In this document: one piece after another, positions 2,673 through 38,688 of the stretch
Layout of the letters: every line of letters begins with the position of its first letter
Numbering within the stretch: the first letter of the stretch is position 1
Sequence record: MK903281.1
Reading direction: 5' to 3' (one strand)
DNA: 39,263 bases
Source of the DNA: Escherichia phage Penshu1
Translations under genes and position numbers: made by a program
Notes under the pieces: model-generated
Databases searched by the model: none
Told to the model about the DNA's origin: nothing
Seen by the model: only the letters and a program-made list of their open reading frames with translations

Positions 2673-2693
2673 CTTAACTATCACTATAGGACT
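2673..2693 (+). promoter_or_regulatory. Phage RNAP promoter upstream of the RNAP gene (variant CTTAACTATCACTATAGGACT)
   Basis: Matches the 10-copy phage promoter family; +1 G at 2689; lies 71 nt upstream of the RNAP start codon. Confidence 0.6.
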
Positions 2694-2763
2694 CAAGGTC
2701 TAAGACTCCAAGTGAAAGACCAAAGAGACTTTAAGTGAAAGACTAATAACAAGGACTTTAAGT

Positions 2764-5445
2764 ATGAGCGTCATCTCTATTGACAAACACGACTTCTCTG
2801 ATGTGTCTAACGCCATTGAGCCGTTTAACCTGCTGGCTGACCACTATGGGCAAGACCTTGCAGTCAAACAGCTTCAGCTTGAGCATGAGGCATACACTGA
2901 AGGCGAGCGACGTTTCATCAAGAACCTTGAGCGACAGACTGAGCGTGGGGAACTGGCAGACAATCAGGTCGCCAAGCCTCTTATGCAGACTCTGGTCCCT
3001 AAGATTGCGCAAGCCGTTAAGGAGTGGCATGAAGGTCAAGACGGGAAGCTGTCAACCTCTCGTCCTAGCGTAGCTTTCACCATGTTGAGCACCGAAGAGA
3101 AGGTTGTTAAAGACCGCTCCCTACGCATCTCCTGCGAGTCTGCTGCGGTTATCATACTGAAGGTCATACTCTCCAAGCTGGTCAAGCCTGAAGGGATACC
3201 GATTACACCGATGGCCTCCGCGATAGGTCGCACACTTGAGGACGAAATCCGCTTCGGGCGCATCCGTGACAAGGAGCAGGAACACTTCAAGAAGGCGATA
3301 GCTGAGAACCTGAACAAGCGAGCCGGGGCATCCTACAAGAAGGCCTACATGCAAGCGGTTGAGACATCCATGCTGGAGCAGGGTCAACTGGAAGATGCGT
3401 GGGGGACTTGGAGTCCGACCGAGGCGGTACACGTTGGAATCAAGACGCTTGAGATTGTCATCCAGTCAACACAACTGGTCGAGCTTAAGCGCTACGGTGC
3501 TGGCAATGCAGCGGCTGACGTAGAGATGGTCCACCTGTCAGACTTTTGGGTAAAGAAGATGGCACAACGAGGATTTAGCCTTGCGGGCATCTCTCCAGTC
3601 TACCAGCCTTGCGTCGTTCCACCTAAGCCGTGGACCGGTGTCGTAGGCGGTGGGTACTGGGCCAAAGGTCGCAGACCACTACCACTGATTCGCTTAGGGT
3701 CTAAGTCTGCGGTGGCACGTTATGAAGACGTGTACATGCCTGAAGTCTATGACGCTGTGAATATCGTCCAGAATACGCCTTGGAAAGTGAACAAGAAGGT
3801 TCTGGACGTGGTGAACATGGTAGAGAAGCTGAACAACACGCCTATTGATGACATTCCTCAGATGGAGCCGCTGAAGCCTGAAGACTATGCGGGTGAGACT
3901 GAAGAGGAACTCAAGGCATGGAAGAAAGCTGCTGCTGGTATCTATCGCCGCGAGAAGGCCCGACAGTCACGCAGATTGTCACTTAGCTTTATCGTTAACC
4001 AAGCGAACAAGTTCTCTCAGTTCAAGGCCATCTGGTTCCCGTACAACATGGACTGGCGCGGTCGCGTCTACGCTGTGCCGATGTTCAACCCTCAGGGTAA
4101 CGACATGCAGAAGGGTCTCCTAACTCTGGCAGTCGGTAAGCCTATTGGTGCCAATGGTTTCAAATGGCTGAAGGTCCACGGTGCAAACTGTGCGGGTATT
4201 GATAAAGTAACCTTCGAGGAGCGCATCAAGTGGGTGGAAGACAACCACGACAACATAATGGCCACTGCTAAGGCACCGATGGACAGCATTGAGTGGTGGG
4301 GTAAGTTAGACTCTCCGTTCTGCTTCCTAGCGTTCTGCTTCGAGTATGCTGGCGTAATGCATCACGGATTGTCTTACTCCTGCTCGCTGCCGATAGCGTT
4401 CGATGGGTCCTGCTCTGGGATTCAGCACTTCAGCGCGATGCTTCGCGACCACATCGGTGGACATGCGGTAAACCTGACGCCTTCCGGTAAGGTCCAAGAC
4501 ATCTACCGCATCGTGTCTGACCGCATTGAGGAAGAGCTTAAAGTCCTGCTGGTTAACGGCACGGACAACGAGATGGTAACTCACGAGGACAAGAAAACTG
4601 GTGAGATTACCGAACGTCTCAAGCTGGGGACACGAGAGCTGGCCCGGCAGTGGCTGACTTACGGTATGTCACGCAAGGTGACTAAGCGTTCGGTCATGAC
4701 TCTGGCCTACGGGTCGAAAGAGTACGGCTTTGCAGACCAAGTGTACGAGGACATCGTGATGTCAGCGATTGACTCAGGGTCTGGCGCTATGTTCACTGAG
4801 CCAAGACAAGCGTCTCGCTTCATGGCTAAGATGATTTGGGAAGCTGTGAGTGTGACTGTAGTTGCTGCGGTTGACGCAATGAAGTGGCTTCAAGGTGCTG
4901 CCAAGCTGCTGGCGGCTGAAGTGAAGGACAAGAAGACTGGAGAAATCCTGAAGCCTTGCCTTCCGGTACACTGGGTCACACCTGACGGTTTCCCGGTCTG
5001 GCAGGAATACCGCAAGAAGGATACCACTCGTCTGAACCTGATGTTCTTAGGGTCCTTCAACCTTCAACCTACGGTCAACAAGGGCACGAAGAAGGAGCTT
5101 GACAAGCACAAGCAGGAGTCAGGCATTAGCCCGAACTTCGTCCACTCACAGGATGGAAGCCACCTACGCAAGACCGTAGTTCACACGCACCGCAAGTATG
5201 GCGTGATGTCATTCGCAGTGATTCACGATAGCTTCGGGACTATCCCGGCTGACGCTGAGTATCTGTTCCGTGGTGTCCGTGAAACGATGGTCGAGACCTA
5301 CCGCGACAACGATGTGCTGCTTGACTTCTATGAGCAGTTTGAATACCAGCTTCATGAGAGCCAGCGCGACAAGTTGCCTGAGCTTCCGAAGAAAGGTAAA
5401 CTGAATATCGAAGACATTCTGTCTTCAGACTTTGCATTCGCTTAA
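2764..5445 (+). CDS. Single-subunit DNA-directed RNA polymerase (T7 gene 1 homologue), 893 aa
   Basis: DGSCSGIQHFSAMLRD, IHDSFGTIPADA and C-terminal ...DFAFA match T7 RNAP signature segments; size matches the 883-aa T7 enzyme. Confidence 0.97.
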   Translation: MSVISIDKHDFSDVSNAIEPFNLLADHYGQDLAVKQLQLEHEAYTEGERRFIKNLERQTERGELADNQVAKPLMQTLVPKIAQAVKEWHEGQDGKLSTSRPSVAFTMLSTEEKVVKDRSLRISCESAAVIILKVILSKLVKPEGIPITPMASAIGRTLEDEIRFGRIRDKEQEHFKKAIAENLNKRAGASYKKAYMQAVETSMLEQGQLEDAWGTWSPTEAVHVGIKTLEIVIQSTQLVELKRYGAGNAAADVEMVHLSDFWVKKMAQRGFSLAGISPVYQPCVVPPKPWTGVVGGGYWAKGRRPLPLIRLGSKSAVARYEDVYMPEVYDAVNIVQNTPWKVNKKVLDVVNMVEKLNNTPIDDIPQMEPLKPEDYAGETEEELKAWKKAAAGIYRREKARQSRRLSLSFIVNQANKFSQFKAIWFPYNMDWRGRVYAVPMFNPQGNDMQKGLLTLAVGKPIGANGFKWLKVHGANCAGIDKVTFEERIKWVEDNHDNIMATAKAPMDSIEWWGKLDSPFCFLAFCFEYAGVMHHGLSYSCSLPIAFDGSCSGIQHFSAMLRDHIGGHAVNLTPSGKVQDIYRIVSDRIEEELKVLLVNGTDNEMVTHEDKKTGEITERLKLGTRELARQWLTYGMSRKVTKRSVMTLAYGSKEYGFADQVYEDIVMSAIDSGSGAMFTEPRQASRFMAKMIWEAVSVTVVAAVDAMKWLQGAAKLLAAEVKDKKTGEILKPCLPVHWVTPDGFPVWQEYRKKDTTRLNLMFLGSFNLQPTVNKGTKKELDKHKQESGISPNFVHSQDGSHLRKTVVHTHRKYGVMSFAVIHDSFGTIPADAEYLFRGVRETMVETYRDNDVLLDFYEQFEYQLHESQRDKLPELPKKGKLNIEDILSSDFAFA

Positions 5446-5505
5446 CAGGAGAGAGTTATGAAATTTGCACATAAGCAGACTGGCGTTAAGGGTGGGACTT
5501 AAATC

Positions 5506-5673
5506 GTGACCGTAACAGAACACAACGGCAAGGGTCTGGTGAAGACCACAGTCATTCCTACCGAAATGTCAAAGCAGCTTAACGTCCCATTCAAGACCCT
5601 CGTCTATCTTGTGGAATCCAGCCACGAGAAGTACCTGAAGGACGCAGTGACCAAGCTGGAGCAGGCCAAATGA
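5506..5673 (+). CDS. Possible small ORF (GTG start), in frame with a 14-codon ATG-initiated peptide ending at TAA 5500-5502
   Basis: Strong RBS (AGGAGAG) serves ATG 5458, which hits an in-frame TAA after 14 codons; the reading frame stays open from the GTG at 5506 to 5673. Confidence 0.2.
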   Translation: MTVTEHNGKGLVKTTVIPTEMSKQLNVPFKTLVYLVESSHEKYLKDAVTKLEQAK

Positions 5674-5749
5674 CAGACCTACAGTTACTGGCCTTGTGGC
5701 TGGGAGCACTAGCAGTATTCACTTTAATCCATCGCAGAAGAGGTTAACC

Positions 5750-5770
5750 CTAAACTATCACTATAGGATT
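5750..5770 (+). promoter_or_regulatory. Phage RNAP promoter (phi1.1-like)
   Basis: CTAAACTATCACTATAGGATT, +1 G at 5766. Confidence 0.75.
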
Positions 5771-5812
5771 AGACTCAAGGTCATGACTCAAAGTCGTGGC
5801 CTTCATGATTAA
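5770..5812 (+). promoter_or_regulatory. RNase III-like processing hairpin, family 2 (R1.1-like)
   Basis: AAGGTCAT (5777-5784) pairs with GTGGCCTT (5796-5803) using G-U wobbles; the conserved TAGACTCAAGGTCAT...GTGGCCTT(T/C)ATG motif recurs at 12520 and 36233. Confidence 0.55.
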
Positions 5813-5844
5813 CCATAAATAAACACTACTGGAGATTTAACCGT

Positions 5845-6024
5845 ATGTATCAGAACACTATCAACTTCGAGCGCATCCGTGAACGTCAGCAGACTGAAGG
5901 TTACATTCCTAAGGGCCGCAAGCTGAACAAGACTAAACGTGGCGGTGGCGTGAAGGGTGCTTTCCGTAACGCTGAAGGTAAAGACTCTATGGTTAACCAA
6001 GAGAAGTATTTCGTAGGAGCATAG
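5845..6024 (+). CDS. gp1.1-like small basic protein, 59 aa
   Basis: ATG at 5845 with GGAGA RBS; contains GRKLNKTKR as in T7 gp1.1; below the 60-aa cutoff of the ORF track. Confidence 0.55.
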   Translation: MYQNTINFERIRERQQTEGYIPKGRKLNKTKRGGGVKGAFRNAEGKDSMVNQEKYFVGA

Positions 6025-6028
6025 CCAA

Positions 6029-6286
6029 ATGGGCAGACTTTATAGTGGCAACCTAAACGCTTTCAAAGCAGCGTGTAACCGACTCTATCAGTTAGACTTC
6101 TGCGTGATACAGCAGGACTGGTACGATGCGCATCTTCGGAAAGAGTGCATGAGACTTCAAGTCGAGGACCGAGCTGGTAGCATCTTCTCGCTTAAGACCT
6201 TCGCACACCGCGATGAAGACGTACTGTATAACACTGCAACAGGCTTCCTTAACTGTCTCGCTAACCAACTCGACACATGGAGATAA
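6029..6286 (+). CDS. gp1.2-like protein (host dGTPase inhibitor family), 85 aa
   Basis: MGRLYSGNLNAFKAA...DWYDA...HRDEDVLYN aligns along its length with T7 gp1.2 (MGRLYSGNLAAFKAA...). Confidence 0.8.
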   Translation: MGRLYSGNLNAFKAACNRLYQLDFCVIQQDWYDAHLRKECMRLQVEDRAGSIFSLKTFAHRDEDVLYNTATGFLNCLANQLDTWR

Positions 6287-6290
6287 CACA

Positions 6291-7325: not shown

Positions 7326-7334
7326 CTAAATGTC

Positions 7335-7368
7335 AACCCAGTGGTCTTAGGACTGCTGGGTTTCTTTG
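7335..7368 (+). terminator. Rho-independent early terminator (T7 TE-like)
   Basis: Stem ACCCAGTGGTC / GACTGCTGGGT with loop TTAG, followed by TTTCTTT, directly after the ligase stop. Confidence 0.5.
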
Positions 7369-7390
7369 CGTCTAGGCCACCAGCTAGACC

Positions 7391-7412
7391 CTAAGCTATC
7401 ACTATAGGACAA
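7391..7412 (+). promoter_or_regulatory. Phage RNAP promoter (variant CTAAGCTATCACTATAGGAC)
   Basis: One mismatch to the family consensus upstream of the core; +1 G at 7407. Confidence 0.65.
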
Positions 7413-7436
7413 CCAACAACAGCCTAAGGAGACTCT

Positions 7437-7697
7437 ATGTCTAAGAACTTAATGTTCAACCGTTATTCCAATACCTTCCACCTGTCCAACAACCAGTTCG
7501 CTTGCATTAAGCGCAACGAGAAGCTGGGCTACTTCGGGAAGGCCGTTAAGCTGTCACCTACAGTCTTCGCTCTGATTACTCCGGGCAAAGCTGAAGAGGC
7601 TCGCCAGAAGCGTGAGACCAATGTGCCTGTGGTCCACACTAAGTGGCCCCGAGTTCGTCTGTTCGTTGAATTCATGAAGGAGGTGATCAATGACTAA
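7437..7697 (+). CDS. Hypothetical protein, 86 aa (gene 1.6 position)
   Basis: ORF with AAGGAG RBS at 5-nt spacing immediately downstream of a phage promoter. Confidence 0.55.
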   Translation: MSKNLMFNRYSNTFHLSNNQFACIKRNEKLGYFGKAVKLSPTVFALITPGKAEEARQKRETNVPVVHTKWPRVRLFVEFMKEVIND

Positions 7698-8025
7698 GCA
7701 CCATGAGTTGTGCCGCTCAGTCCTTAGCTCCGGTCCGTGCGACTGCGGTGCTGTTCTTGGATTCCGCGCCGAGTGTATTGAAGATGACGCTGTACGCAAG
7801 CCATCCCACTATCAGGTCTTTGACGGTGTCGAGTCCATTGAGATTATCGCTCGGTCCATGACTGTCAGCGAGTTCCGCGGGTTCTGCATGGGTAACGTCC
7901 TGAAGTATCGACTCCGGGCTGGTAAGAAGTCCGAACTGGCTACTATGGAGAAGGACCTGAACAAAGCAGCCTTCTATCAGGAGCTGTTCGACCTGCATAA
8001 AGGTAAGTGCTATGATGCCGAGTGA
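7690..8025 (+). CDS. gp1.7-like protein (nucleotide kinase family), C-terminal-domain-only, 111 aa
   Basis: PSHYQVFDGVESIEIIARSMTVSEFRGFCMGNVLKYRLRAGKKSELA matches the C-terminal half of T7 gp1.7 (196 aa). Confidence 0.75.
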   Translation: MTKHHELCRSVLSSGPCDCGAVLGFRAECIEDDAVRKPSHYQVFDGVESIEIIARSMTVSEFRGFCMGNVLKYRLRAGKKSELATMEKDLNKAAFYQELFDLHKGKCYDAE

Positions 8026-8107
8026 TTGGTGCCGGGAGATGTACGAGAAGACTCTCAACCCGGACTACATTACATTATACAACCAATGGAAGGAGCGCGG
8101 TTTATGA
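8012..8107 (+). CDS. gp1.8-like small protein, 31 aa
   Basis: [31 protein letters not shown] resembles the T7 gp1.8 C-terminus (WCRKMWEETFDDAYIKLYELWKSRGQ); overlaps both neighbouring genes. Confidence 0.55.
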
Positions 8108-8262
8108 CTGAGGTTGAGAAGAAATACATCGTGGAGCTTGAGGGGCGCGTTCAGTCCTTCGAGGTTCCGGTGTACGCAAAGTCTCTTGAAGAGGCTACCC
8201 TGAAGTCCCAAGAGTATGAGGACGCTGGGTTTGTGGTCGGACGGATTCGTCCTGAGACCTAA
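8104..8262 (+). CDS. gp2-like inhibitor of host RNA polymerase, 52 aa
   Basis: Start moved to ATG 8104 (GGAAGGAG RBS); [35 protein letters not shown] aligns with T7 gp2 ([35 protein letters not shown]). Confidence 0.75.
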
Positions 8263-8280
8263 ACTATCACTGTAGGACAG
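8259..8280 (+). promoter_or_regulatory. Phage RNAP promoter, degenerate (CTAAACTATCACTGTAGGACA), phi2.5-like
   Basis: Family match except A-to-G at position -3; +1 G at 8275; directly upstream of the SSB gene. Confidence 0.55.
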
Positions 8281-8320: not shown

Positions 8321-9022
8321 ATGGCTAAAGAGCAACTGAAGACTTTCACCACTCCGGTAGCTGGTATCGTTGAGCCTTACGCATGGCTGAACAAAGCAGA
8401 CACCAAGTTTAACGAGCGTGGTGAGCATAAGGTTAACCTGACGTTCGACCTGAGCGACCCGAAGGTCCGTAAGATGATTGATGTCTTACAGAAGATTCAC
8501 GACGATGCGTATGCGAAAGCACTCGCAGACCACGAGAAGAACCCACCTCAGGTTCAGCGTGGCAAGAAGCCTATCGAGCCGCGTGAAGGCGATATGCCGT
8601 GGATTGAGAATGGTGACGGTACTGTTACCATGAAGTTTAAATGCTTTGCGTCTTACCTGAAAGACGGCAAGTCCGAGCCTATCGTATTACGGTTCTACGA
8701 CACCGATGCTAAACTCATCCGTGACGTCCCGAATATTGGCGCTGGGTCTAAGCTGAAGGTCAAGTTCAAAGTCCTGCCGTTCAAGTGGAACGCTGCGACT
8801 GGTGCAAGCGTTAAGCTGCAGCTTGAGTCCTGCCTTCTGGTAGAACTGAAGGAGTGGAAAGGTGATGGTGCTGGTGGCGATGGTGGTTGGGGTGATGATG
8901 AAGACCTCGGTACTGGTTATAAAGCGCCAACTGATGGTGACTTCGGGTCTGACGACTTCGGGTCTGACGATGGTTCCGAAGGTGGTGACGACTCCGGCTC
9001 TGGTGGCGATTACGACTTCTGA
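8321..9022 (+). CDS. Single-stranded DNA-binding protein (T7 gene 2.5 homologue), 233 aa
   Basis: Collinear similarity to T7 gp2.5 including the acidic C-terminal tail ending in F (...GGDYDF). Confidence 0.9.
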   Translation: MAKEQLKTFTTPVAGIVEPYAWLNKADTKFNERGEHKVNLTFDLSDPKVRKMIDVLQKIHDDAYAKALADHEKNPPQVQRGKKPIEPREGDMPWIENGDGTVTMKFKCFASYLKDGKSEPIVLRFYDTDAKLIRDVPNIGAGSKLKVKFKVLPFKWNAATGASVKLQLESCLLVELKEWKGDGAGGDGGWGDDEDLGTGYKAPTDGDFGSDDFGSDDGSEGGDDSGSGGDYDF

Positions 9023-9462
9023 TGACACTGAAAGAGAAACTGGAGGCTTACTCTATAGTTTCTCCTTCTGGCTGCTGGGAGTGGCAACGCTCCCGGCTAC
9101 CTTCTGGCTATGGTAGAATCTCAATAGGACACCAGAAACTGGACTATGCGCATCGGGTATCTTACCGAGAGCACGTTGGTCCCATACCTGATGGACTTCT
9201 GGTTCGCCATAAATGTGACAACCCTTGCTGCTGTAACCCGGAGCATCTTGAAGTCGGGACTCAGACAGACAACATGCAGGATTGCGTGAAGCGGGGTCGT
9301 CACTCGAAACCGCCAGTATTCAAAGGAGAAGCTAATCACAAGACTAAGCTGACCGAGGAAGACGTAAAGTTCATCCTGAAGTCTGACGAAAGTCCTACCG
9401 ACCTAGCCAAGAGATTCGGCGTTACCCCGCAAGCTATAGCGTGGAGACGAAAGAATGGCTAA
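9022..9462 (+). CDS. HNH endonuclease (homing-endonuclease-like), 146 aa
   Basis: HRVSYREHVGPIPDGLLVRHKCDNPCCCNPEHLEVGTQTDN is a canonical HNH motif; paralogue of the ORF at 17579. Confidence 0.8.
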   Translation: MTLKEKLEAYSIVSPSGCWEWQRSRLPSGYGRISIGHQKLDYAHRVSYREHVGPIPDGLLVRHKCDNPCCCNPEHLEVGTQTDNMQDCVKRGRHSKPPVFKGEANHKTKLTEEDVKFILKSDESPTDLAKRFGVTPQAIAWRRKNG

Positions 9463-10579: not shown

Positions 10580-10593
10580 TAAACTCTAATTGG

Positions 10594-10615
10594 GGGACCT
10601 TAGGGTCCCTTTGTT
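10594..10615 (+). promoter_or_regulatory. Short hairpin GGGACC-TTAG-GGTCCC followed by TTTGTT (possible attenuator or processing element)
   Basis: Perfect 6-bp inverted repeat with tetraloop and U-rich tail between the lysozyme and primase-helicase genes. Confidence 0.3.
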
Positions 10616-10637
10616 CGCATTTGTGATTAAGGAGTGA

Positions 10638-12369
<1,732 letters not shown>

Positions 12370-12519
12370 AGCACGCTACCATCGGTTCATGTACAAATGG
12401 TGGAGCGATGAAGCAACCTGCCTGTCAAACATTCTGGGAGACCAGCGGTTCTACTCTAAGGCATGGAAGAAAGCTAACCGGAAGTTTATGTATCACTTCT
12501 TGCGTACAGACTTCTAGGT

Positions 12520-16284: not shown

Positions 16285-16337
16285 GTCTAACCGATAGTCA
16301 TATCCTATCAATCCAACAGTCATCCATAGGTGAAACA

Positions 16338-16359
16338 CTAAACTATCACTATAGGGACT
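16338..16359 (+). promoter_or_regulatory. Phage RNAP promoter (phi6.5-like)
   Basis: CTAAACTATCACTATAGGGACT, +1 G at 16354. Confidence 0.75.
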
Positions 16360-16420
16360 TTAGGACCTAAGATATGACTATAAGATAGACTTTAGTCTTA
16401 ACTTAAAGAGGAGATTCAAG

Positions 16421-17341: not shown

Positions 17342-17582
17342 ATCAATCAGTAAGGCCTTCAAGAAAGTGGTGAAAAGTACGTTAGGGACCGTTGGTCTCG
17401 GTAATGACGAGGCACCAAATGTCGTTGAGGCTCAGACACCAGCAGCACCAGTGGAAGTACCGAACGACAAAGTGGAAGATGTGGATACTGAAGTGACTGC
17501 ATCTGACGATAAGAAAGTGAAGCGAACTGGTAAGCGTGGACTTAGCGTCTCTCGTACTTCCGGTGGTGGTATCTCTATATGA
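17334..17582 (+). CDS. gp7.3-like tail/virion protein, 82 aa (GTG start)
   Basis: Begins MGKSISKAFKK and ends LSVSRTSGGGISI, like T7 gp7.3 (MGKKVKKAVKK...SLSVARSSGGGINI); AAGGAG RBS before GTG 17334. Confidence 0.7.
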   Translation: MGKSISKAFKKVVKSTLGTVGLGNDEAPNVVEAQTPAAPVEVPNDKVEDVDTEVTASDDKKVKRTGKRGLSVSRTSGGGISI

Positions 17583-17989
17583 CAGACTGCATACTACATA
17601 AAGGCTGCGTTAGTAATTCTGGATATGGCCTGAAGTGGTATTCTGGTAGGCTGCGGGGAGCACACGTAGTGTCATATCTCAAGAACAAGGGACCTATACC
17701 AGAAGGGCTAGTTGTGATGCACTCTTGTGACAACAGATTGTGCGTAAATCCAGAACATCTTAGTGTTGGGACCTACAGTGAGAACATGATAGACTGTGTT
17801 TCCAAGGGACGGAAGAACGCTCAGCATAGTGACAGCCACTACAACTCCAAGCTGAGCGCTGAAGAAGTTAAGTCCATACGCAAGTCAGGACTAACGGCTA
17901 CAGAGCTTACAGCCATGTATCCTGGAGTGTCTAGGAGAACGCTGTCTGACGTATTAATAGGTAAAACATGGAGGCACGTAGATGGCTGA
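17579..17989 (+). CDS. HNH endonuclease (T7 gp7.7-like), 136 aa
   Basis: GPIPEGLVVMHSCDNRLCVNPEHLSVGTYSEN HNH motif; collinear with T7 gp7.7; paralogue of the ORF at 9022. Confidence 0.8.
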   Translation: MTDCILHKGCVSNSGYGLKWYSGRLRGAHVVSYLKNKGPIPEGLVVMHSCDNRLCVNPEHLSVGTYSENMIDCVSKGRKNAQHSDSHYNSKLSAEEVKSIRKSGLTATELTAMYPGVSRRTLSDVLIGKTWRHVDG

Positions 17990-19550
17990 ACGTGAAGGGT
18001 TCGCTGCTGAAGGAGCCAAAGCGGTCTATGACCGGCTGAAGAACGGTAGACAGCCATATGAGACACGCGCTCAGAACTGTGCTGCTGTCACTATCCCGTC
18101 ACTGTTTCCTAAGGAGTCCGACAACTCGTCTACTGAGTACACAACTCCGTGGCAAGCTGTAGGTGCTCGCTGTTTGAACAACTTGGCTGCAAAGCTTATG
18201 TTGGCGTTATTCCCTCAGTCACCGTGGATGCGACTGACAGTCTCAGAATATGAGGCCAAGACCTTGAGTCAGGACTCAGAGGCTGCTGCTCGTGTTGACG
18301 AAGGGCTGGCTATGGTCGAGCGTGTGTTGATGGCCTACATGGAGACTAACAGTTTCCGTGTCCCATTGTTCGAAGCACTGAAGCAGCTTATCGTCTCCGG
18401 TAACTGTCTTCTCTACATTCCAGAGCCTGAACAGGGAACCTACAGTCCCATGCGAATGTACCGCTTAGTGTCTTACGTTGTTCAACGTGATGCGTTCGGT
18501 AACATCTTGCAGATTGTGACTCTCGACAAGGTAGCGTTTAGTGCTCTACCGGAAGACGTGAAGTCTCAACTCAACGCAGACGACTATGAGCCTGACACAG
18601 AGCTTGAAGTGTATACGCACATCTACCGTCAGGACGACGAGTATCTGCGTTACGAGGAGGTGGAAGGCATTGAGGTAACAGGGACCGATGGTTCCTACCC
18701 GCTGACTGCATGTCCATACATCCCGGTACGAATGGTTCGACTGGATGGTGAAGACTATGGTCGTTCTTACTGCGAGGAGTATCTGGGAGACCTGAACTCG
18801 CTGGAGACGATTACAGAAGCTATCACCAAAATGGCTAAGGTAGCCTCCAAAGTGGTTGGCCTCGTTAACCCGAACGGCATCACGCAACCTCGTCGTCTTA
18901 ACAAAGCGGCTACAGGTGAGTTTGTGGCTGGTCGTGTTGAGGACATCAACTTCCTGCAACTAACGAAAGGTCAGGACTTTACGATTGCCAAGTCGGTGGC
19001 TGACGCTATCGAGCAGCGTTTAGGCTGGGCCTTCCTTCTTAATAGTGCTGTTCAGCGTAATGCCGAGCGAGTAACTGCTGAAGAGATTCGTTATGTTGCT
19101 GGCGAACTGGAGGCGACCTTAGGTGGCGTGTATTCAGTGCAGTCACAAGAGCTTCAGTTACCTATCGTCCGTGTGCTGATGAACCAGCTTCAGTCTGCTG
19201 GCATGATTCCTGACCTCCCGAAAGAAGCGGTTGAGCCTACGGTCTCCACTGGTCTGGAAGCGTTAGGTCGTGGTCAAGACTTAGAGAAGCTGACTCAGGC
19301 AGTCAACATGATGACCGGGCTACAGCCTCTGCAACAGGACCCAGACATTAACTTGCCGACCCTGAAGTTGCGACTGCTGAATGCCTTAGGTATTGACACT
19401 GCTGGTCTGCTATTGACTCAGGACGAGAAGATGCAACGTATTGCTGAACAATCCGCTCAAGGAGCTGTGGTCAACGGTGCGTCTGCTGCTGGTGCTAACA
19501 TGGGTGCTGTTGTAGGTCAGGGAGCTGGTGAGGACATGGCTCAAGCCTAA
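17982..19550 (+). CDS. Portal (head-tail connector) protein (T7 gene 8 homologue), 522 aa
   Basis: Extended collinear identity to T7 gp8 (YETRAQNCA, PWQAVGAR, YRLVSYVVQRDAFGN, GLVNPNGITQPRRL, AEEIRYVA). Confidence 0.95.
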   Translation: MAEREGFAAEGAKAVYDRLKNGRQPYETRAQNCAAVTIPSLFPKESDNSSTEYTTPWQAVGARCLNNLAAKLMLALFPQSPWMRLTVSEYEAKTLSQDSEAAARVDEGLAMVERVLMAYMETNSFRVPLFEALKQLIVSGNCLLYIPEPEQGTYSPMRMYRLVSYVVQRDAFGNILQIVTLDKVAFSALPEDVKSQLNADDYEPDTELEVYTHIYRQDDEYLRYEEVEGIEVTGTDGSYPLTACPYIPVRMVRLDGEDYGRSYCEEYLGDLNSLETITEAITKMAKVASKVVGLVNPNGITQPRRLNKAATGEFVAGRVEDINFLQLTKGQDFTIAKSVADAIEQRLGWAFLLNSAVQRNAERVTAEEIRYVAGELEATLGGVYSVQSQELQLPIVRVLMNQLQSAGMIPDLPKEAVEPTVSTGLEALGRGQDLEKLTQAVNMMTGLQPLQQDPDINLPTLKLRLLNALGIDTAGLLLTQDEKMQRIAEQSAQGAVVNGASAAGANMGAVVGQGAGEDMAQA

Positions 19551-19568
19551 ACTATCACTATAGGAACA
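19547..19568 (+). promoter_or_regulatory. Phage RNAP promoter (phi9-like)
   Basis: CTAAACTATCACTATAGGAACA, +1 G at 19563. Confidence 0.75.
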
Positions 19569-20524: not shown

Positions 20525-20526
20525 GA

Positions 20527-20548
20527 CTAAACTATCACTATAGGGAGA
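20527..20548 (+). promoter_or_regulatory. Phage RNAP promoter for the capsid gene (phi10-like, full consensus)
   Basis: CTAAACTATCACTATAGGGAGA, +1 G at 20543, followed by a 108-nt leader. Confidence 0.8.
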
Positions 20549-21825: not shown

Positions 21826-21831
21826 TTGAAA

Positions 21832-21868
21832 CCCCTTGGGTGCCTTCGGGTGCTTGAGGGGTTTTTTT
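21832..21868 (+). terminator. T-phi-like transcription terminator
   Basis: G-U-rich 13-bp stem (CCCCTTGGGTGCC / GGGTGCTTGAGGGG) closed by a UUCG tetraloop, then seven T residues, immediately after the 10B stop. Confidence 0.75.
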
Positions 21869-25235: not shown

Positions 25236-25285
25236 AAGGGCCTATAGATTTACCTTAACTATCACTATAGGGACTATAGGCCCTT
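25236..25285 (+). promoter_or_regulatory. Phage RNAP promoter (phi13-like, CTTAACTATCACTATAGGGACT) nested inside a perfect 12-bp inverted repeat
   Basis: Promoter at 25254-25275 with +1 G at 25270; AAGGGCCTATAG (25236-25247) is the exact reverse complement of CTATAGGCCCTT (25274-25285). Confidence 0.65.
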
Positions 25286-25304: not shown

Positions 25305-25763
25305 ATGTATATTCGCAAGGCTGCGGAACAGGATGTCCACTACTTTCTGTGGCATCTTTCAGAAGATGATGTTAATGAGTGCAAAGCAAACTACGGGTCA
25401 ACCGTGGGTCTCTCTGAAAGACTGCTTAAGCACCTATCTCCGTCATCTGTGGTTTTAACGAACGGTGTAGGTGAAGTGTTTGCCTATGGTGGAAACCAAG
25501 GGGATAACGTATGGTTCTTGACTTCCGGTCTGGTCTACAAGCTGGGGCCTAAAGAGAAGCGAGAGTTCATAAAGCGTATCTCTGAGTACAGGGACTTAAT
25601 GTTAGACCAATACGGGACCATCTGGAACTACGTGTGGTCAGGCAATAAGTCTCACATTAAATTCTTGAAGTTGCTTGGGGCTAAGTTCCATGATGATTGG
25701 ACTGTAAGTCCGGTAACTGGTGAGCGTTTTCAACTATTCACTATCTCTAAGGAGCAAAGATGA
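25305..25763 (+). CDS. Gene 13-position protein (internal virion/assembly protein homologue by synteny), 152 aa
   Basis: ORF with AAGGAG RBS immediately downstream of the phi13-like promoter; function assigned by position only. Confidence 0.55.
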   Translation: MYIRKAAEQDVHYFLWHLSEDDVNECKANYGSTVGLSERLLKHLSPSSVVLTNGVGEVFAYGGNQGDNVWFLTSGLVYKLGPKEKREFIKRISEYRDLMLDQYGTIWNYVWSGNKSHIKFLKLLGAKFHDDWTVSPVTGERFQLFTISKEQR

Positions 25764-26146
25764 CCAAGGTTTGTACAGTCTGTAAGATTGAGAAGCCTCG
25801 CTCTGCGTTCTCCCCACGGAAGGACTCAAAGTGTGGTATCCGTTCGGCCTGTAAGTTGTGCCACAATGGTCGAAGCCATAAGAACAAAGGATACGAAAAG
25901 TATCACCTAACTCAGGACGAGTACGATTCAATCCTCAGGTCTCAGGACGGAGTGTGCGCTATATGCAAAACTTCAGGACCTAGCCGAGGGCTATGCGTGG
26001 ACCACTGCCATGACTCCGGTAAGGTGCGTGGTATTCTGTGCCACACCTGCAACCTTAAGCTGACACGTAGAAACTATCCGTCCACCTGCGACAATTTCGA
26101 CGAGAAGGCTGCTGAGTATCTGGCTGGTAGCCGGAAGGGGGATTAG
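25760..26146 (+). CDS. Endonuclease VII-like (His-Me finger / HNH superfamily) putative homing endonuclease, 128 aa
   Basis: GVCAICKTSGPSRGLCVDHCHDSGKVRGILCHTCNLKL matches the T4 Endo VII core (CLICQ...HLDHDH...GKVRGLLCNLCN); N-terminal CxxC...C...C zinc motif; inserted between genes 13 and 14. Confidence 0.8.
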   Translation: MTKVCTVCKIEKPRSAFSPRKDSKCGIRSACKLCHNGRSHKNKGYEKYHLTQDEYDSILRSQDGVCAICKTSGPSRGLCVDHCHDSGKVRGILCHTCNLKLTRRNYPSTCDNFDEKAAEYLAGSRKGD

Positions 26147-29031: not shown

Positions 29032-29036
29032 CAATT

Positions 29037-32000: not shown

Positions 32001-32927
32001 GTGGAGCATAGCCTGACTGGTAGTAAGCGTAAGTTCGATGACCGATGGCTGAAGACCGCTGGTATCTCTGACGAGCAATGGAATGGCATTAAGTCCCTAA
32101 TCCGTGAGTCAGTGACTCGTGGGCCAGACGGGAAGTACACCATCAAGGATAAGAAGGCGTTCAGTAAGGACCCAAGGGCTATGGACCTGTGGCGTATGGG
32201 TGACACCATCGCTGATGAAACGTTACTACGACCTCATAAGCTGTCCAACATGGACGCCAAGGCTTATGGTACTATCGCTAAGACTGTCCTTCAGTTTAAG
32301 AACTTCGTCATCAAGTCCATCAATGGACGTACCATGCGAACCTTCTATAACGCCACGAAGAACAACCGAGCGATGGACGCTGCTCTGTCCACTGTGATAT
32401 CGATGGGTCTTGCTGGTGTCTACTACATGGCTCAGGCTCACGTCAAGGCTTACGCTATGCAGGATGGTCGAGACCGTGATTACCTCAAGCAAGCTCTTGA
32501 CCCGACTATGATTGGTTATGCGGCTCTATCCCGTAGCTCACACTTGGGTGGCCCACTTGGGGTCGCCAACATTCTGGGTGGCATCGCTGGGTATGAGGAC
32601 ACTAAGTTACTCCGCTCGTCTATCCTTCCGCGCTCACCTACCGAGAAGACTGAGAAGCCAATCGCCTTTGGTGCGGCTACAAGTGACCCTGTGATGAATG
32701 TTGTTGGTAACTTCTTGGAGCAGGTTCCAGCTTTCGGATATGCTGCTAACGTTGGCTCTTCGGCTTACAACTTGGCTGGCTACCTCAAGGCTGATACTCG
32801 TGTCAACGAGCGTGACTACATGACCGGGATGTATAATACGTTCCGTGAACTGGTTCCGAACGACCCCATTACCCAGAAGCTGTTACTTGGAACGTTTGAG
32901 GAGCAAGGTATCCACATCAAGGACTAA
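29037..32927 (+). CDS. Internal virion protein (T7 gene 16 homologue) with a divergent N-terminal domain, 1296 aa
   Basis: From about residue 200 onward collinear with T7 gp16 (RSTWFGF, TRWNSH, VITGGSPQNL, GAGVDPLTYVP, MENPAMFG, KGTYVPHVY); the first ~200 aa do not resemble the T7 lytic-transglycosylase N-terminus. Confidence 0.9.
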   Translation: MATRGIRNNNIGNIRVSKDQWEGATGDDGAFVTFDTPDSGVRALAKNLMSYGRQGYDSIEKIITRWAPPNENDTQAYIQSVASATGIPATQSLDLTDPDVLASLSEAIGYHETGSRYDKSVYQAGVGRALGGGISPKTPPVSANVFDALTEGLKAKPKVTLGESLPTAAGLNIEGQTPEAPNESFGEMFYKATGETMQEREDRSTWFGFGAATEAEVKNSMVGVAIRAGQTEDSLDVIGDVFNPTRWNSHKWSREELDQIRNAGVLPQYYGVITGGSPQNLTELINLALENQKLDQEKAKAGIGAQLAAGVIGAGVDPLTYVPIAGQVGKGGKLVNKMFTVAAQSGALAGVSEMARTSVAGGDAHVAEAILGGALFGGGMTAIADGLGRALGRNTNEFAGPATRLEARETARNVDGQDLSRLPIQEGEQTFSHQGVKFAEVPNEPGSVRLEDGSILIGENPLNPKTRQVFDEVIEPERAAAGVNLGGLTEIGLKLLRSENPEIRGVAADLVRSPTGMQSGASGKIGTTASDVFERLRAVDHRFYNDIDDAVTEALKDPYFQTAFWRDSGAFRQDIYQRVSMAIEDGSGNLKAELTPGELKVYDLLKNQFDAKREMMENPAMFGRTDAQSIFPGSRFKGTYVPHVYSNQMKELYIKELGSPEALQEAIKKSWLTSYASRPEVKKRVDEALLEADPTLTPDGLAAAVDKYANDKAYGISHTEQFERSSVMEENINGLVGLENNSFLEARNLFDSDMSIVLPNGQTFSVNNLREWDMDKIVPAYNRRVNGDIAIMAGTGKTTKDMKDLVETMMNKAGDDGKLKGEVSTLRDTLKILTGRARRDGSDDAALATVMRTMTDLSFFAKNAYMGVQNLTEIGGMLARGNVRALLHGVPMFRDLAFRNKKVGASEIKALHNVIFGKELDDSIRPSKQDVIDRLRSYSDLGRGAATALGSAKYYTGELAVRSPFTKVLNGTTNYLLDAGRQGFLSDIVEHSLTGSKRKFDDRWLKTAGISDEQWNGIKSLIRESVTRGPDGKYTIKDKKAFSKDPRAMDLWRMGDTIADETLLRPHKLSNMDAKAYGTIAKTVLQFKNFVIKSINGRTMRTFYNATKNNRAMDAALSTVISMGLAGVYYMAQAHVKAYAMQDGRDRDYLKQALDPTMIGYAALSRSSHLGGPLGVANILGGIAGYEDTKLLRSSILPRSPTEKTEKPIAFGAATSDPVMNVVGNFLEQVPAFGYAANVGSSAYNLAGYLKADTRVNERDYMTGMYNTFRELVPNDPITQKLLLGTFEEQGIHIKD

Positions 32928-32945
32928 ACTATCACTATAGGAAAC
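32924..32945 (+). promoter_or_regulatory. Phage RNAP promoter (phi17-like)
   Basis: CTAAACTATCACTATAGGAAAC, +1 G at 32940, overlapping the gene 16 stop codon. Confidence 0.75.
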
Positions 32946-32991: not shown

Positions 32992-35733
32992 ATGTCCACG
33001 ATTACACAATTCCCTTCAGGCAACACTCAGCACAGGATTGAGTTCGACTATCTAGCCAGACCATTTGTTGTTGTAACTCTGGTTAATAGCTCTAACCCTA
33101 CCCTGAACCATGTGCTGGAAGCGGGTCGAGATTACCGATTCCTTAATCCAACTATGATTGAAATATTGGCTGACCAATCAGGTTTCGACATCGTTCGTAT
33201 TCACCGTCAGACTGGAACTGACTTAGTGGTAGACTTCCGCGATGGCTCGGTGCTGACAGCTAATGACCTGACCAATGCAGAGCTTCAGGCTATCCATATT
33301 GCAGAAGAAGGTCGAGACCAAACGGTTGACTTAGCGAAGGAATATGCCGATGCTGCTGGTATCTCTGCTGGTAACGCTAAGGATAGCGAGAACGAAGCAC
33401 GACGTATCGCTGAGAGTATCAAGACTGCTGGTCTGATGGGTTACATTACTCGTCGCTCCTTCGAGAAAGGCTTCAACATTACCGCATGGAACGAGGCCCT
33501 GCTGTGGGAAGCTGATGGGAACTACTACCGCTGGGATGGAACATTACCTAAGAACGTGCCTGTGGGCTCTACACCTGAGGCCACTGGTGGAGTTGGTAAA
33601 GGTAAGTGGCTTTCGGTCGGAGACGCAACGTTGCGCACTGAGATGCTTCGTGGTCGCTTCAAGTTCGAGGGAGCTGAGTCTGTCTACTATGTCCCGAACA
33701 TCAACTTCAACACTTCGGTAGATAACCGAGCCGCTGCTTATGCGTTTGCCAGTAAGATTTACATCCCTCGTGATGTGACCATCCGTGTGAACCTGCTGCC
33801 AGACGACGATGTTCGTAAGTTTGTAGGTGAGGGTAAACTCATTGTCAAGAACCAGTTCTATGGAGGTGACATGCTGTTTGACGTAGAGAAGGCGACAAAT
33901 GGTAATGGACGCTCGGTCAAGGATGTACTGATGAGCGCTTACAGTCGTCAGGCCTACGGAGTGGCTGACGTTGGTATCGTTGGCGACTCTATCACCGATG
34001 GTGCGTGGGGTAAACAGAACTGGGCGTCCCCACCTCTTACCCCAGAACGTGACCTTCAGGCTCCTATTGATTATGATCACAGTCTGTCTGGTGGTTCACA
34101 CTCATGGTGCGCGCACTGGGAATACCTGATGAACGCTGTTCAGTCACGCTTCTCCGCCGAGGCTATCTTCAAGATTAAGAACGCCTCTCTGTCTGGTGCT
34201 AGGCTGAGTGACGGCTGGGGCTACCGTAACTTCGACCGTGGGTTCTTCGGTAATATCCGCTATGGTGCAAAAGCTCCGAACATCTGCATTCTGGCTATGG
34301 GCTGGAACGACAGCAGCGCTAACAGCGATACTTACCGCGACCAGATTGACATGTTCGTCCGTAAGGCGTGGGGATATGGTTGCACCGTTGGTATCGTGAC
34401 TGTAAATGACAACGACCCGCACCGCATGGGCTTCGAGGCAGACACAAAGCGTCAGATGTGCAATCGTCTTGGAATCGACTACTTCAACCTAGGTCCTGAC
34501 CTGACGGAAATCAGTAACAAGACCATGCATGATATGGAGTGGTATTACACCAAGAAAGACCCAGCGTGGGACACAACGCACCCTCAGGAGCTTGGACAGA
34601 TGGTAATGGGAAACGCAATGTTCATGCAGACAGTAGGCGAGAAGTATGTACGCCGGGTCAAATCAGGGGATGTAATTACTCCTGCTGTGGTTGAAAGCTA
34701 TTGGGATGCAGTCACTTACCCATCGCACAACCACCTGAAGCCAGCCTATGGTAAGACTGGTGGTACTCCAGTTCTGGACTCGCTGAAGTATCTTCCTATG
34801 GCATCTACTGCTGGTGAGAACGTAACGTTCACCACTTTAGTCTGGTGCGAGGAGAACGATATGTCCCTGACGGTCTTTGAGCCGTGGACTGGTAACGGCA
34901 AGGTAGGGGATTATAACCACGTCAAGGTTATCAACCCAGCGGGCAAGGACTTGGACATTAATGACCCAGTTTATGGAGCCAGAAACACCACGGTAAACAA
35001 TGAGCGCATCCTGCGTCAGGGGAAGTTAGCCTCTAGCTGGCTTGGTGGTGGTAAGAGCTTAACTACCTACGTAGGCCGACTGCGTAAGGGCTTAAACCAG
35101 ATTAACATCGTTAATGGTGGTCAGCTTCCCACTGTTTGGTATCCAGCCCTGAAGTTTGGCACGTCCAACAATGACGGCATCCACATCCCGATGACACGAC
35201 GGGGTATTGGTGTCTCCGCTCTTCCTACAGCACTATACGCAGATGGTAACAAGTTCGAAGACTACATGCTTAGCAACGTTATGTCTGGACGTAAAGGCTC
35301 CCTCACGGCTGACGCTTATGCTCAGCAGGGTACGCTGGTGGGTCGAGTATACGTTAAGTCCGGACTGAAGAAGTCAGTATACTTGGCGTTGAACTGGAAT
35401 CCAATTATGAACACAGCGGTCCTCCTTGGCGTGGCCTCTGATGGTCGACTGGCGGTGGGTACGTGGAATGGTGGTGAGCCTACTGACTGGAAGGTCCTGA
35501 CGTCTGCATATCAGGGCGACTTCACGGACAAAGGTTTTACAGTGTATCACTACACCCAGGTCTCCGATGGTTCTCATCTTTTTACTCTGACTACTGATGA
35601 CGGAACTGTTAAAGACGCTAACGTGTTTACGACACTTACTGCTACATCCGGTGTCGTCGGGCTCCTGAACCGAGTAGGAGGCTCGAAGATTGTGGAAGTA
35701 GAGGCGAACTACACGCTGACTAGCGTAGGGTAA
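32992..35733 (+). CDS. Tail fibre / tailspike with gp17-type N-terminal anchor and an internal SGNH (GDSL) esterase domain, 913 aa
   Basis: N-terminus ([14 protein letters not shown]...DYRF...[16 protein letters not shown]...IHIAEEGRD) matches the T7 gp17 tail-attachment domain. SGNH blocks: GDSITDG (Ser codon 33988-33990), GWND (34300-34311) and DTTHP (34570-34584). Confidence 0.85.
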
Positions 35734-35775
35734 CAACTTTGGGTCAAGGACGACCCGCTTTAAACTGGAGGTTTT

Positions 35776-35970
35776 ATGCTTGAGTTAGACTTCAAGAATG
35801 AGGTCCTTAAAGCCTCTCCTATAGTCGGGACCGCTGCGGCTGATGGTGCCAGTCGGTTCTTCTTCGGACTCACACTGAACGAATGGTTCTACGTTGCAGC
35901 TATCGCGTACACCGTTGTCCAGATTGGTGTGCTAGTCTACAAAACGATTAAAGGAGGTGGTAAAACATGA
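35776..35970 (+). CDS. Holin (T7 gene 17.5 homologue), 64 aa
   Basis: MLELDFKNEVLKASPIVGTAAADGASRFFFGLTLNEWFYVAAIAYTVVQIG is near-identical to T7 gp17.5. Confidence 0.85.
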   Translation: MLELDFKNEVLKASPIVGTAAADGASRFFFGLTLNEWFYVAAIAYTVVQIGVLVYKTIKGGGKT

Positions 35971-36230
35971 CGCAGATGGACTTAGAGAAGTTCCTCTTGA
36001 TGCTAGATACTGAACGTGCTCGACTCATGCTGCAAGACCTGCGGGATGACTCTAAGCGTTCACCTCAGCTCTACAACGCCATTGAGAAGCTACTGGCTCG
36101 TCACAACTTCGTGTTAAGCAAGGTGTCTGTGGACGAGAAGACTCTGGCTGATATGGAGGCCCTGAACGCAGAGTACGATAAGGTACTTTCAGCTACTGAG
36201 GATAATGACACTGGATATGGTGTTCAATAA
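35967..36230 (+). CDS. Terminase small subunit (T7 gene 18 homologue), 87 aa
   Basis: Position, size and the RSPQLYNAIEKLLARHNF motif match T7 gp18; ATGA overlap with the holin gene. Confidence 0.85.
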   Translation: MTQMDLEKFLLMLDTERARLMLQDLRDDSKRSPQLYNAIEKLLARHNFVLSKVSVDEKTLADMEALNAEYDKVLSATEDNDTGYGVQ

Positions 36231-36232
36231 GT

Positions 36233-36275
36233 GTTAGACTCAAGGTCATTACTATATGTAGTGGCCTTTATGGTT
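36233..36275 (+). promoter_or_regulatory. RNase III-like processing hairpin, family 2 (R18.5-like)
   Basis: AAGGTCAT (36242-36249) pairs with GTGGCCTT (36261-36268); same conserved motif as at 5770 and 12520. Confidence 0.55.
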
Positions 36276-36331
36276 AACACTAACTAGTGGAGGCGACTCT
36301 ACGTGGATTCTGAGAAATGAGGAGGGCAACT

Positions 36332-36769
36332 ATGCTCGAATTTTTAAAGAGAGCGGCTCCGTGGTTACTTGCAGCAGTGATGTTTGCTGGTGGCTACCAC
36401 ACCGCTAACAATAAGTGGGAGGCTAAGGTCAATGCAGAATACACCTCGAATCTTAAGGCATCGGAAGATACAAGGCTTGCTGTCCAAGCTGAAGTCAACA
36501 AAGTGTCCAAGCGGTTTCAGGACGAAATGTCCTCGCTGGAAGGCAGCACTGATAGGATTATTGCTGACCTTAACCGCGATAACAAGCGGCTGCGCGTCAA
36601 AGTCAACACCTCAGGTCTCACCGAGCAAGCTATCAGTCGATGCTTCCCTAATGGTAGAGTCGAACTACACCCAGAAACTTCTAAAAGTCTTATCCGAATA
36701 GCTCAGGAGGCAGACCTTAAGGAGAAGGCGCTTCAGGACACAATAAGGAGGCTCCAAGGTGTTAAATGA
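36332..36769 (+). CDS. i-spanin, Rz-like (T7 gene 18.5 homologue), 145 aa
   Basis: Start moved to ATG 36332 (GAGGAGGG RBS); MLEFLKR..., N-terminal TM segment and GSTDRIIADLNRDNKRLRVKV match T7 gp18.5. Confidence 0.85.
   Translation: MLEFLKRAAPWLLAAVMFAGGYHTANNKWEAKVNAEYTSNLKASEDTRLAVQAEVNKVSKRFQDEMSSLEGSTDRIIADLNRDNKRLRVKVNTSGLTEQAISRCFPNGRVELHPETSKSLIRIAQEADLKEKALQDTIRRLQGVK
36432..36701 (+). CDS. o-spanin lipoprotein, Rz1-like (gene 18.7 position), embedded in the +1 frame of the i-spanin gene, 89 aa
   Basis: ATG 36432 with GGGAGG 9 nt upstream; basic N-region then hydrophobic AALIGLLLTLTAI and lipobox-like ITSGC; the first ATG of the track ORF (36384) has no RBS. Confidence 0.55.
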   Translation: MQNTPRILRHRKIQGLLSKLKSTKCPSGFRTKCPRWKAALIGLLLTLTAITSGCASKSTPQVSPSKLSVDASLMVESNYTQKLLKVLSE

Positions 36770-36804
36770 TTACTACAAAGTGGACCTAATGCTGGAGGGA
36801 CTAT

Positions 36805-38571
36805 ATGTCTAAGAAAACACCCGCTGAAAGACAGGCAGAAATGACCCAAAGGATGAGGGACGACTTCGTGTTCTTCATCTTCGTTCTCTGGAAAGCACTA
36901 AGTCTTCCGGTTCCAACCCGCTGCCAGATAGATATGTGCAAGAAGCTGGCTGCTGGGGATAATCGCCGCTTCATCCTTCAGGCGTTCCGTGGTATTGGCA
37001 AGTCGTTTTTGACATGTGGCTTTGTGGTCTGGAAGCTATGGAACAACCCAGACTTGAAGTTCATGATTGTGTCGGCCTCAAAGGAACGAGCCGATGCGAA
37101 CTCCATCTTCATTAAGCGAATCATCGACCTCATGCCTCAGCTTCAGGAACTCAAACCTAAGCAGGGACAACGAGATGCGGTTATCAGCTTTGACGTTGGG
37201 CCAGCCAAGCCAGACCACTCACCTTCGGTTAAGTCCGTTGGTATCACTGGTCAGTTGACTGGTAGTCGTGCGGACATCCTGATTGCCGATGACGTAGAGG
37301 TCCCCGGTAACTCATCGACTCAAGCTGCAAGGGACCGACTGTCAGAGCTTGTGAAAGAATTCGACGCTATCCTGAAGCCGGGAGGTACAATCATCTATCT
37401 AGGCACTCCTCAGAACGAGATGACCCTGTACCGTGAGTTGGAAGGTCGTGGGTATACCACTACTATCTGGCCAGCTCGTTATCCACGCGATAAGAAGGAC
37501 TGGCAGTCTTACGGCGACCGTCTGGCTCCTATGCTTCAGGCAGAGCTGGAAGAGGACCCTGAGTCCTTCTACTGGCGTCCGACTGATGAAGTACGCTTCG
37601 ATGATACGGACCTGAAGGAACGTGAGCTGTCCTACGGTAAAGCTGGATTCGCTCTACAGTTCATGCTTAACCCTAACCTGAGTGATGCTGAGAAGTACCC
37701 TCTGAAGCTCCGTGACCTTATCGTAGCCGACTTGGACCCAGAGTCCAGCCCAATGGTCTACCAATGGTTGCCGAACCCTCAGAACAAGCGTGAGGACGTT
37801 CCTAATGTTGGACTCATGGGTGATTCATACCACACGTATCAGACTGTAGGTTCTGCCTTTAGTTCGTACACCCAGAAGATTCTGGTCATAGACCCTAGTG
37901 GTCGTGGTAAGGATGAGACGGGCTATGCGGTACTGTATCAGCTCAACGGCTACATCTTCGTGATGGAAGCTGGTGGTATGCGTGGTGGTTATGAAGACTC
38001 TACGCTGGAAGCTCTGGCTAAGATTGGTCGTAAGTGGAAGGTTAACGAATACGTCATTGAGGGTAACTTCGGTGATGGCATGTACCTTGAGCTATTCAAG
38101 CCTGTAGCGGCCCGTATCCATCCTGCTGCTGTAACTGAAGTTAAGAGTAAGGGTCAGAAAGAACTCCGCATCTGTGACGTTCTGGAGCCTATCATGGGGT
38201 CTCACCGACTTATCGTTAACGCTGCTGCTATCGTCCAAGACTACCAGTCAGCCTCTGATAAGGATGGTGTTCGTAACCCTATCTACTCTCTCTTCTACCA
38301 GATGACCCGTATCTCTCGTGAACGTGGCGCCTTGGCACACGATGACCGACTTGATGCGCTGGCTATCGGTGTACAGTTCTTCGTTGAGTCTATGGCTAAG
38401 GATGCCAACAAAGGAGAACGTGAAGTCACTGAGGAGTGGCTGGAGGAACAGATGGAGAACCCACGGAAAGGCTTCGAGTCCATCCACACTGAGTTCTGGG
38501 ACAATGGGGTCCGGGTAACTCACGATACGGACGACGAGCTTGGACTAGGGTCCTACGTTACGTTCCACTAG
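36805..38571 (+). CDS. Terminase large subunit (T7 gene 19 homologue), 588 aa
   Basis: Collinear with T7 gp19; ATPase and nuclease segments ([38 protein letters not shown]). Confidence 0.95.
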
Positions 38572-38666
38572 CTGAATGAATAACTATGGGCGAAAGCCGC
38601 ATGAATACGCGGTTAGTAACCTATAGTTACTACCAGACTAACCTACTGTTTTATAAGCAGTTTGGA

Positions 38667-38688
38667 CTTAACTATCACTATAGGGAAG
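38667..38688 (+). promoter_or_regulatory. Phage RNAP promoter near the right end (phiOR-like)
   Basis: CTTAACTATCACTATAGGGAAG, +1 G at 38683, downstream of the terminase gene. Confidence 0.7.

Follow-up and report, generated by a model that had tools for sequence, protein, structure and literature searches.

Promoter subfamilies were identified in T7-like phages by Temme et al. (2012; PMC3458549), who grafted the K1F hairpin into the RNA polymerase (RNAP) of T7. The T7 enzyme carrying the K1F loop was active, with 17-fold induction, when −12 to −7 of a T7 promoter had been exchanged for the K1F consensus, and the resulting pair was orthogonal to T7 (PMC3458549). A "K1F" cluster is also named among the classes of T7-like RNAP and promoter by Zhu et al. 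(2025; PMC11880802), whose Table 2 gives ACTAT at −12 to −8 as the cognate of a 754S/756N/761V variant. In addition, the purified RNAP of the Kayfunavirus Ro45lw was shown to transcribe ACTTAACTATCACTATAGGGACT in vitro, with the +1 G mapped by 5′-end sequencing and the minimal promoter given as ACTTAACTATCACTATAGGGA (Takatsuki et al. 2025; PMC12272871), and eight copies of CTWAACTATCACTATAGG in the genome of the Kayfunavirus Sparklingdew were interpreted as promoters in a paper of 2026 (PMC13298934). Here we compare these systems with ten short repeats found in Escherichia phage Penshu1 (MK903281.1; 39,263 nucleotides, the whole stretch analyzed, hereafter the window). The repeats are almost certainly a K1F-type (Kayfunavirus) promoter set read by the phage's own RNAP.

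A search of the window with ACTATCACTATAGG, allowing up to two mismatches, revealed exactly ten matches, all of them on the + strand, in comparison with 0.28 expected from shuffled sequences, none of which reached ten. These are the ten + strand copies proposed in a previous description made from the DNA letters alone (the sequence-only reading), whose start positions correspond to −16 of each promoter and whose last coordinate, 38688, corresponds to +6 of the last one. The consensus of the ten sites was (A/C)CT(A/T)AACTATCACTATAGG(G/A), with positions −16, −15, −13, −11 to −4, and −2 to +2 fixed among the copies. The core TCACTATAG at −8 to +1, with the initiating G, was present in all ten, one copy bearing a G at −3; this is the copy at 8259 (+1 at 8275) that had been singled out as degenerate. 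The two sub-variants previously noticed in the upstream half were also recovered, with A at −14 in seven copies and T in three. On the other hand, a G at −12 in the copy with +1 at 7407 (GCTATC) had gone unmentioned; ACTAT occupied −12 to −8 in the other nine copies, and the GCTAT of this phi1.6 copy is the same in K1F, pO91, EcoDS1, and Ro45lw.

Weight matrices spanning −22 to +8 or −17 to +6 were run on both strands and scored the ten sites at 33–42 bits, or at 27–38 bits when each site was omitted from its own matrix. The runner-up (+1 at 16383) reached 15.7–17.9 bits and the top shuffled-sequence score was 15.4. No credible copy appeared on the − strand, and the scan left the count at ten, with no further credible copy. 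The information profile extended from −17 to +3. Regarding weaker internal copies, a third mismatch added just three non-promoter matches, two on the − strand within the left-end CCTACAGTC repeats and one at 38822. The runner-up (16366–16388, CCTAAGATATGACTATAAGATAG), located 29 nt beyond the start of phi6.5, was considered as an eleventh promoter and rejected; because it carries a G at −7 and an A at +1, it is probably a dead or fossil copy, maybe a fossil tandem promoter. This sequence is unchanged in K1F, pO91, and yong1. The predicted RNA structure downstream of phi6.5, examined as an RNase III site, had a fold of −10.1 kcal/mol (z = 0.11) and was no better than those of shuffled sequences.

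Alignment to EcoDS1 revealed that the window is a complete Kayfunavirus genome (K1F-like, T7 group, subfamily Studiervirinae) with a single copy of the terminal repeat: positions 1–179, at the left end of the genome, aligned with the EcoDS1 terminal repeats of either side, and the last base of the window falls at the point where the right repeat is expected. DNA identity to Kayfunavirus genomes in megablast was ca. 91–95%, with ca. 190–220 records spanning most of the query. The EcoDS1 record (EU734172) contains eleven annotated 23-bp phage promoters (before gene 1, before 1.1, phi1.6, phi2.5, before gene 4, phi6.5, phi9, before gene 10, phi13, phi17, and phiOR), along with host promoters, the early terminator TE, a late terminator, and the terminal repeats. 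The 23-mers of the window matched ten of these eleven one-to-one, nine being identical and the remaining one differing only at −17. Six of the ten are annotated in the Ro45lw record (MK301532); promoter features are absent from the two K1F GenBank records inspected. K1F (DQ111067), pO91, and yong1 have these sites too, in unchanged order, and nine of the ten window sites were identical to those of K1F. The correspondence with K1F and EcoDS1, in 23-bp sequence and in genome position, includes the G−12 and G−3 variants. Furthermore, an exact search of IMG/VR for CTWAACTATCACTATAGG returned 95 stretches distributed over no fewer than 23 contigs, which with few exceptions measure 39–40 kb and carry several copies each. 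An additional promoter-like sequence, GCTTAACTATCACTGTAGGATAG, was observed in Ro45lw before the DNA polymerase gene (+1 at 12462); it is unannotated, and neither the window nor the other relatives have it.

To assess conservation, the promoters of the window were compared with those of K1F, pO91, yong1, Ro45lw, and EcoDS1. Across these six genomes, 238 of 253 promoter columns (94%) were invariant vs 1081 of 1906 columns (57%) in the ±80-nt flanks. Since the promoter columns are far more invariant than their flanks, the data indicate purifying selection acting on the promoter elements themselves. The deviations of single sites were also maintained, with G at −3 of phi2.5 in all six genomes and G at −12 of phi1.6 in five of them. 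The promoter upstream of gene 1 was kept in K1F, pO91, yong1, and EcoDS1, and showed two changes in Ro45lw.

Each of the ten sites has the orientation of the genes, lies between genes or at a gene end, and is syntenic with an annotated promoter of relatives. The sequence-only reading had placed all of them in intergenic DNA. This holds approximately, but three copies (8258, 19546, and 32923) share bases with the final codon and the stop codon of the preceding gene; that stop codon is the promoter TAA found at −15 to −13 (8260–8262, 19548–19550, and 32925–32927, respectively). The genes ending in this way are genes 2, 8, and 16, the open reading frame at 8026–8262 being assigned to gene 2 by synteny with EcoDS1 and K1F. 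In T7, genes 2, 8, and 16 likewise end in a promoter TAA, but at −17 to −15 of phi2.5, phi9, and phi17. The overlap of stop codon and promoter is thus conserved with T7 in a register shifted by 2 nt.

The position of the sites bears on a different explanation of the repeats, namely that they are mainly target sites for recombination, replication origin, packaging, or homing endonucleases, rather than for transcription. Some T7 promoters (phi1.1A/B and phiOR) also act as origin or packaging-related elements, and several HNH and Endo VII genes are present in the genome. However, the ten sites are placed just upstream of gene blocks, in a common orientation, at the mapped promoter positions of T7, and they have a T7-type promoter sequence with the CACTATAG core plus the +1 G. 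Besides, the RNAP of a relative, Ro45lw, whose enzyme is 94% identical, initiates there in vitro (PMC12272871). Any such extra roles would supplement promoter function, not replace it, and we consider this explanation extremely improbable.

For T7, the reference set was the 17 promoters whose start sites are annotated in its record. The T7 consensus, TAATACGACTCACTATAGGG, and that of the window, nCTAAACTATCACTATAGG, are identical from −8 to +2. The window has ACTA at −12 to −9 vs CGAC in T7, as the sequence-only reading had pointed out together with the common −8 to +1 bases. That description of the difference was accurate for −12 to −9 and left out a second one, at −17 to −14, where the window has (A/C)CT(A/T) and T7 has TAAT. 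The window shares with T7 the 23-bp architecture, the +1 G, the co-orientation with genes, and the TE and Tphi terminators, and its sites match the positions of T7 phi1.1, phi1.5/1.6, phi2.5, phi6.5, phi9, phi10, phi13, phi17, and phiOR. GGGA is the usual start of the late promoters and GGA that of the early-middle ones, as in T7. On the contrary, the number of sites is ten in the window vs 17 in T7, without equivalents of T7 phiOL, phi3.8, 4c, 4.3, and 4.7, and the window promoter directly upstream of gene 1 has no counterpart in the annotated T7 and T3 records, where only an Escherichia coli promoter is found at that place.

The enzyme encoded by gene 1 of the window provides the other half of the comparison. 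Its specificity loop, aligned with T7 residues 739–770, is identical to that of K1F and differs from that of T7 (YKKPIQTRLNLMFLGQFRLQPTINTNKDSEID) by Q754S, R756N, and I761V, plus changes at 740, 742–744, and 763–769. Promoter bases are hydrogen-bonded in T7 by R746, N748, R756, and Q758 (PMC11880802). Among these four residues R756 alone is altered in the window RNAP, to Asn, so that N748 and Q758 are found in its loop together with S754, N756, and V761. In a covariation analysis, residue 756 of the RNAP is tied to the promoter bases at −10 and −9 (PMC11880802), both among the four at −12 to −9 that differ between the window and T7. In addition, the N-terminal region aligned with the AT-rich recognition loop of T7 differs from it and has an 11-residue insertion, which is in keeping with the differing bases at −17 to −14. 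The previous suggestion of an RNAP loop tuned to a different promoter is thus supported by a loop that differs from T7 and is identical to K1F, and by a pairing that has been published and tested; it was slightly incomplete, since −17 to −14 and the N-terminal region of the RNAP also differ from T7.

It could be argued that specificity has not really shifted, the difference at −12 to −9 being neutral drift and the sites being read equally well by a T7-type enzyme. The identity with T7 at −8 to +1 and the retention of contact residues R746, N748, and Q758 fit this idea, as does the noticeable non-cognate activity of the grafted set of Temme et al., with an orthogonality ratio of 8 (PMC11880802). 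Against it, cross-scores were negative in both directions, the T7 matrix scoring the window sites at −4 to −24 bits and the window matrix scoring the T7 promoters at −2 to −16 bits; the four bases at −12 to −9 were invariant in nine of ten copies and across the six genomes; the base-contacting R756 of T7 is Asn in the window enzyme; and the swap of the loop and of −12 to −7 yielded an orthogonal pair by experiment (PMC3458549). Altogether, we find it very improbable that a T7-type enzyme would read these sites equally well.

In the K1F-type scheme that we favor, host RNA polymerase would first transcribe the early region, of which gene 1 is part. The RNAP made from gene 1 would then bind the 23-bp elements at −17 to −5, melt −4 to +2, and begin the RNA at the +1 G, driving rightward transcription of the middle (DNA metabolism) and late (virion, lysis, and packaging) genes. 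Discrimination from T7 promoters would take place chiefly at −12 to −9, where the major groove would be read by the specificity-loop hairpin through Ser754, Asn756, and Val761, in place of the Gln, Arg, and Ile of T7. The pairing of loop and promoter and the initiation at +1 are carried over to Penshu1 by analogy with the grafted T7 RNAP and the Ro45lw enzyme. The engineered T7(K1F)/PK1F pair shares with the window the loop substitutions 754S, 756N, and 761V and the ACTAT at −12 to −8. However, it has a T7 scaffold and a promoter altered only at −12 to −7, whereas the window promoters also differ at −17 to −14 and downstream of +2. Outside the loop, the native RNAP of the window also departs from the T7 scaffold in the N-terminal region with its insertion. 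Regarding Ro45lw, the 23-mer tested departs from phi13 of the window only at −17. At T7 positions 750 and 765, the loop of the Ro45lw RNAP carries Leu and Ser, respectively, instead of Met and Thr; the biochemical data belong to the Ro45lw enzyme, not to that of the window.

Several points weigh against this scheme. Firing of all ten copies in Penshu1, with their relative strengths, is something that we infer, and two of them, the copy at 8275 with its G at −3 and the copy at 7407 with its G at −12, may be weak promoters. It has to be noted also that Asn748 is kept although −11/−10 is CT in the window vs GA in T7; because of this unchanged residue, the logic linking residues to bases is incompletely explained by the three substitutions. 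Finally, a role of −17 to −14 for the native enzyme is drawn from the summary of truncation tests in PMC12272871, and the graft of Temme et al. needed −12 to −7 alone.

The coordinates of the promoters, of the two terminators, and of the RNAP gene and its loop are collected in Table 1. The TE hairpin of the window is homologous to the TE annotated at 7668–7697 in EcoDS1.

Table 1. Features of the K1F-type transcription system in the window. For promoters, coordinates cover −17 to +6 of each 23-bp element.
Feature	Coordinates	Strand	Sequence and remarks
Promoter before gene 1	2672..2694	+	ACTTAACTATCACTATAGGACTC; +1 2689; identical to EcoDS1 "phi" 2244–2266
phi1.1 position, downstream of gene 1	5749..5771	+	CCTAAACTATCACTATAGGATTA; +1 5766; annotated in EcoDS1 (6034–6056) and Ro45lw (5483–5505)
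phi1.6	7390..7412	+	CCTAAGCTATCACTATAGGACAA; +1 7407; G at −12; just past early terminator TE
phi2.5	8258..8280	+	CCTAAACTATCACTGTAGGACAG; +1 8275; G at −3; 23/23 positions invariant in six genomes
phi6.5	16337..16359	+	ACTAAACTATCACTATAGGGACT; +1 16354
phi9	19546..19568	+	CCTAAACTATCACTATAGGAACA; +1 19563; overlaps stop of portal gene (17982–19550)
phi10, before major capsid gene	20526..20548	+	ACTAAACTATCACTATAGGGAGA; +1 20543; GGGAGA start as in T7 class III
phi13	25253..25275	+	CCTTAACTATCACTATAGGGACT; +1 25270; −16 to +6 equal to the Ro45lw promoter tested in vitro
phi17, before tailspike gene	32923..32945	+	ACTAAACTATCACTATAGGAAAC; +1 32940; overlaps gene 16 stop
phiOR, after terminase gene	38666..38688	+	ACTTAACTATCACTATAGGGAAG; +1 38683; ACTTAACTATCACTATAGGGA verbatim at 38666–38686
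Early (host RNAP) terminator TE, hairpin	7337..7367	+	CCCAGTGGTCTTAGGACTGCTGGG then TTTCTTTG; in the gap between the ligase gene and the promoter at 7390
Tphi-type terminator after capsid gene	21831..21868	+	GC-rich hairpin then TTTTTTT; syntenic with EcoDS1 22122–22157
Gene 1, single-subunit RNAP, 893 aa	2764..5445	+	64% identical to T7 RNAP, 98% to K1F, 94% to Ro45lw
RNAP specificity loop (T7 residues 739–770)	5008..5103	+	YRKKDTTRLNLMFLGSFNLQPTVNKGTKKELD; identical to K1F

Other features of the genome were observed along with the promoter set. Short repeats of the CCTACAGT(C) type occur near both ends of the window (200–300 and 39150–39263), as in other Kayfunavirus genomes. The tailspike encoded at 32992–35733 is not the K1F endosialidase; it has a T7-type N-terminal adaptor domain followed by G7C-type domains (G7C_GBD, G7C_C, and Gp63_3rd_G7C), and also a GDSL/SGNH esterase-like segment. 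The G7C-type domains together with the esterase-like segment suggest that the tailspike modifies O-antigen and that the host is not of the K1 type. At three places (9022–9462, 17579–17989, and 25760–26146) a probable mobile nuclease gene is inserted between genes conserved in the T7 group; two of the nucleases are of the HNH type (HNH_3) and one belongs to the endonuclease VII family, and their presence varies across relatives.

The promoter class described here is already known: it is annotated in GenBank, biochemically characterized, and in use in synthetic biology as an orthogonal partner of T7. The interpretation given in the sequence-only reading was right but is a rediscovery, the specificity between loop and promoter having already been tested experimentally. 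For Penshu1, the value of the analysis lies in the annotation of the genome, which gains ten transcription starts, two terminators (TE and Tphi), and a genus assignment. Furthermore, the ten natural variants, with their conserved deviations, could form a small promoter-strength series for the K1F or Ro45lw polymerase.

Regarding regulation in this lineage, we regard as unlikely, and put forward only as a tentative proposal, that it is jointly shaped by an autogene at gene 1, by strength-setting substitutions at phi2.5 and phi1.6, and by dependence on read-through from phi2.5. The promoter before gene 1 stands 75 nt upstream of the start of the RNAP gene and would make gene 1 a natural "autogene" under positive feedback. 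Neither the small gene 3.7 nor the weak promoter (ACTAAACTATCACCTTAGGG type) before gene 4, the primase/helicase gene, is present in the window, and both were found in all five compared relatives; at the junction (window 10580–10640, compared with K1F 10655–10935 and EcoDS1 10879–11143), 18 nt stand where EcoDS1 has ca. 265 nt, and among the top database matches this junction was contiguous only in vB_EcoM_SHAK9454. With the weak gene 4 promoter lost, the primase/helicase and DNA polymerase genes would therefore rely wholly on read-through from phi2.5. Finally, the conserved G at −3 of phi2.5 and G at −12 of phi1.6 may have been selected to set promoter strength.

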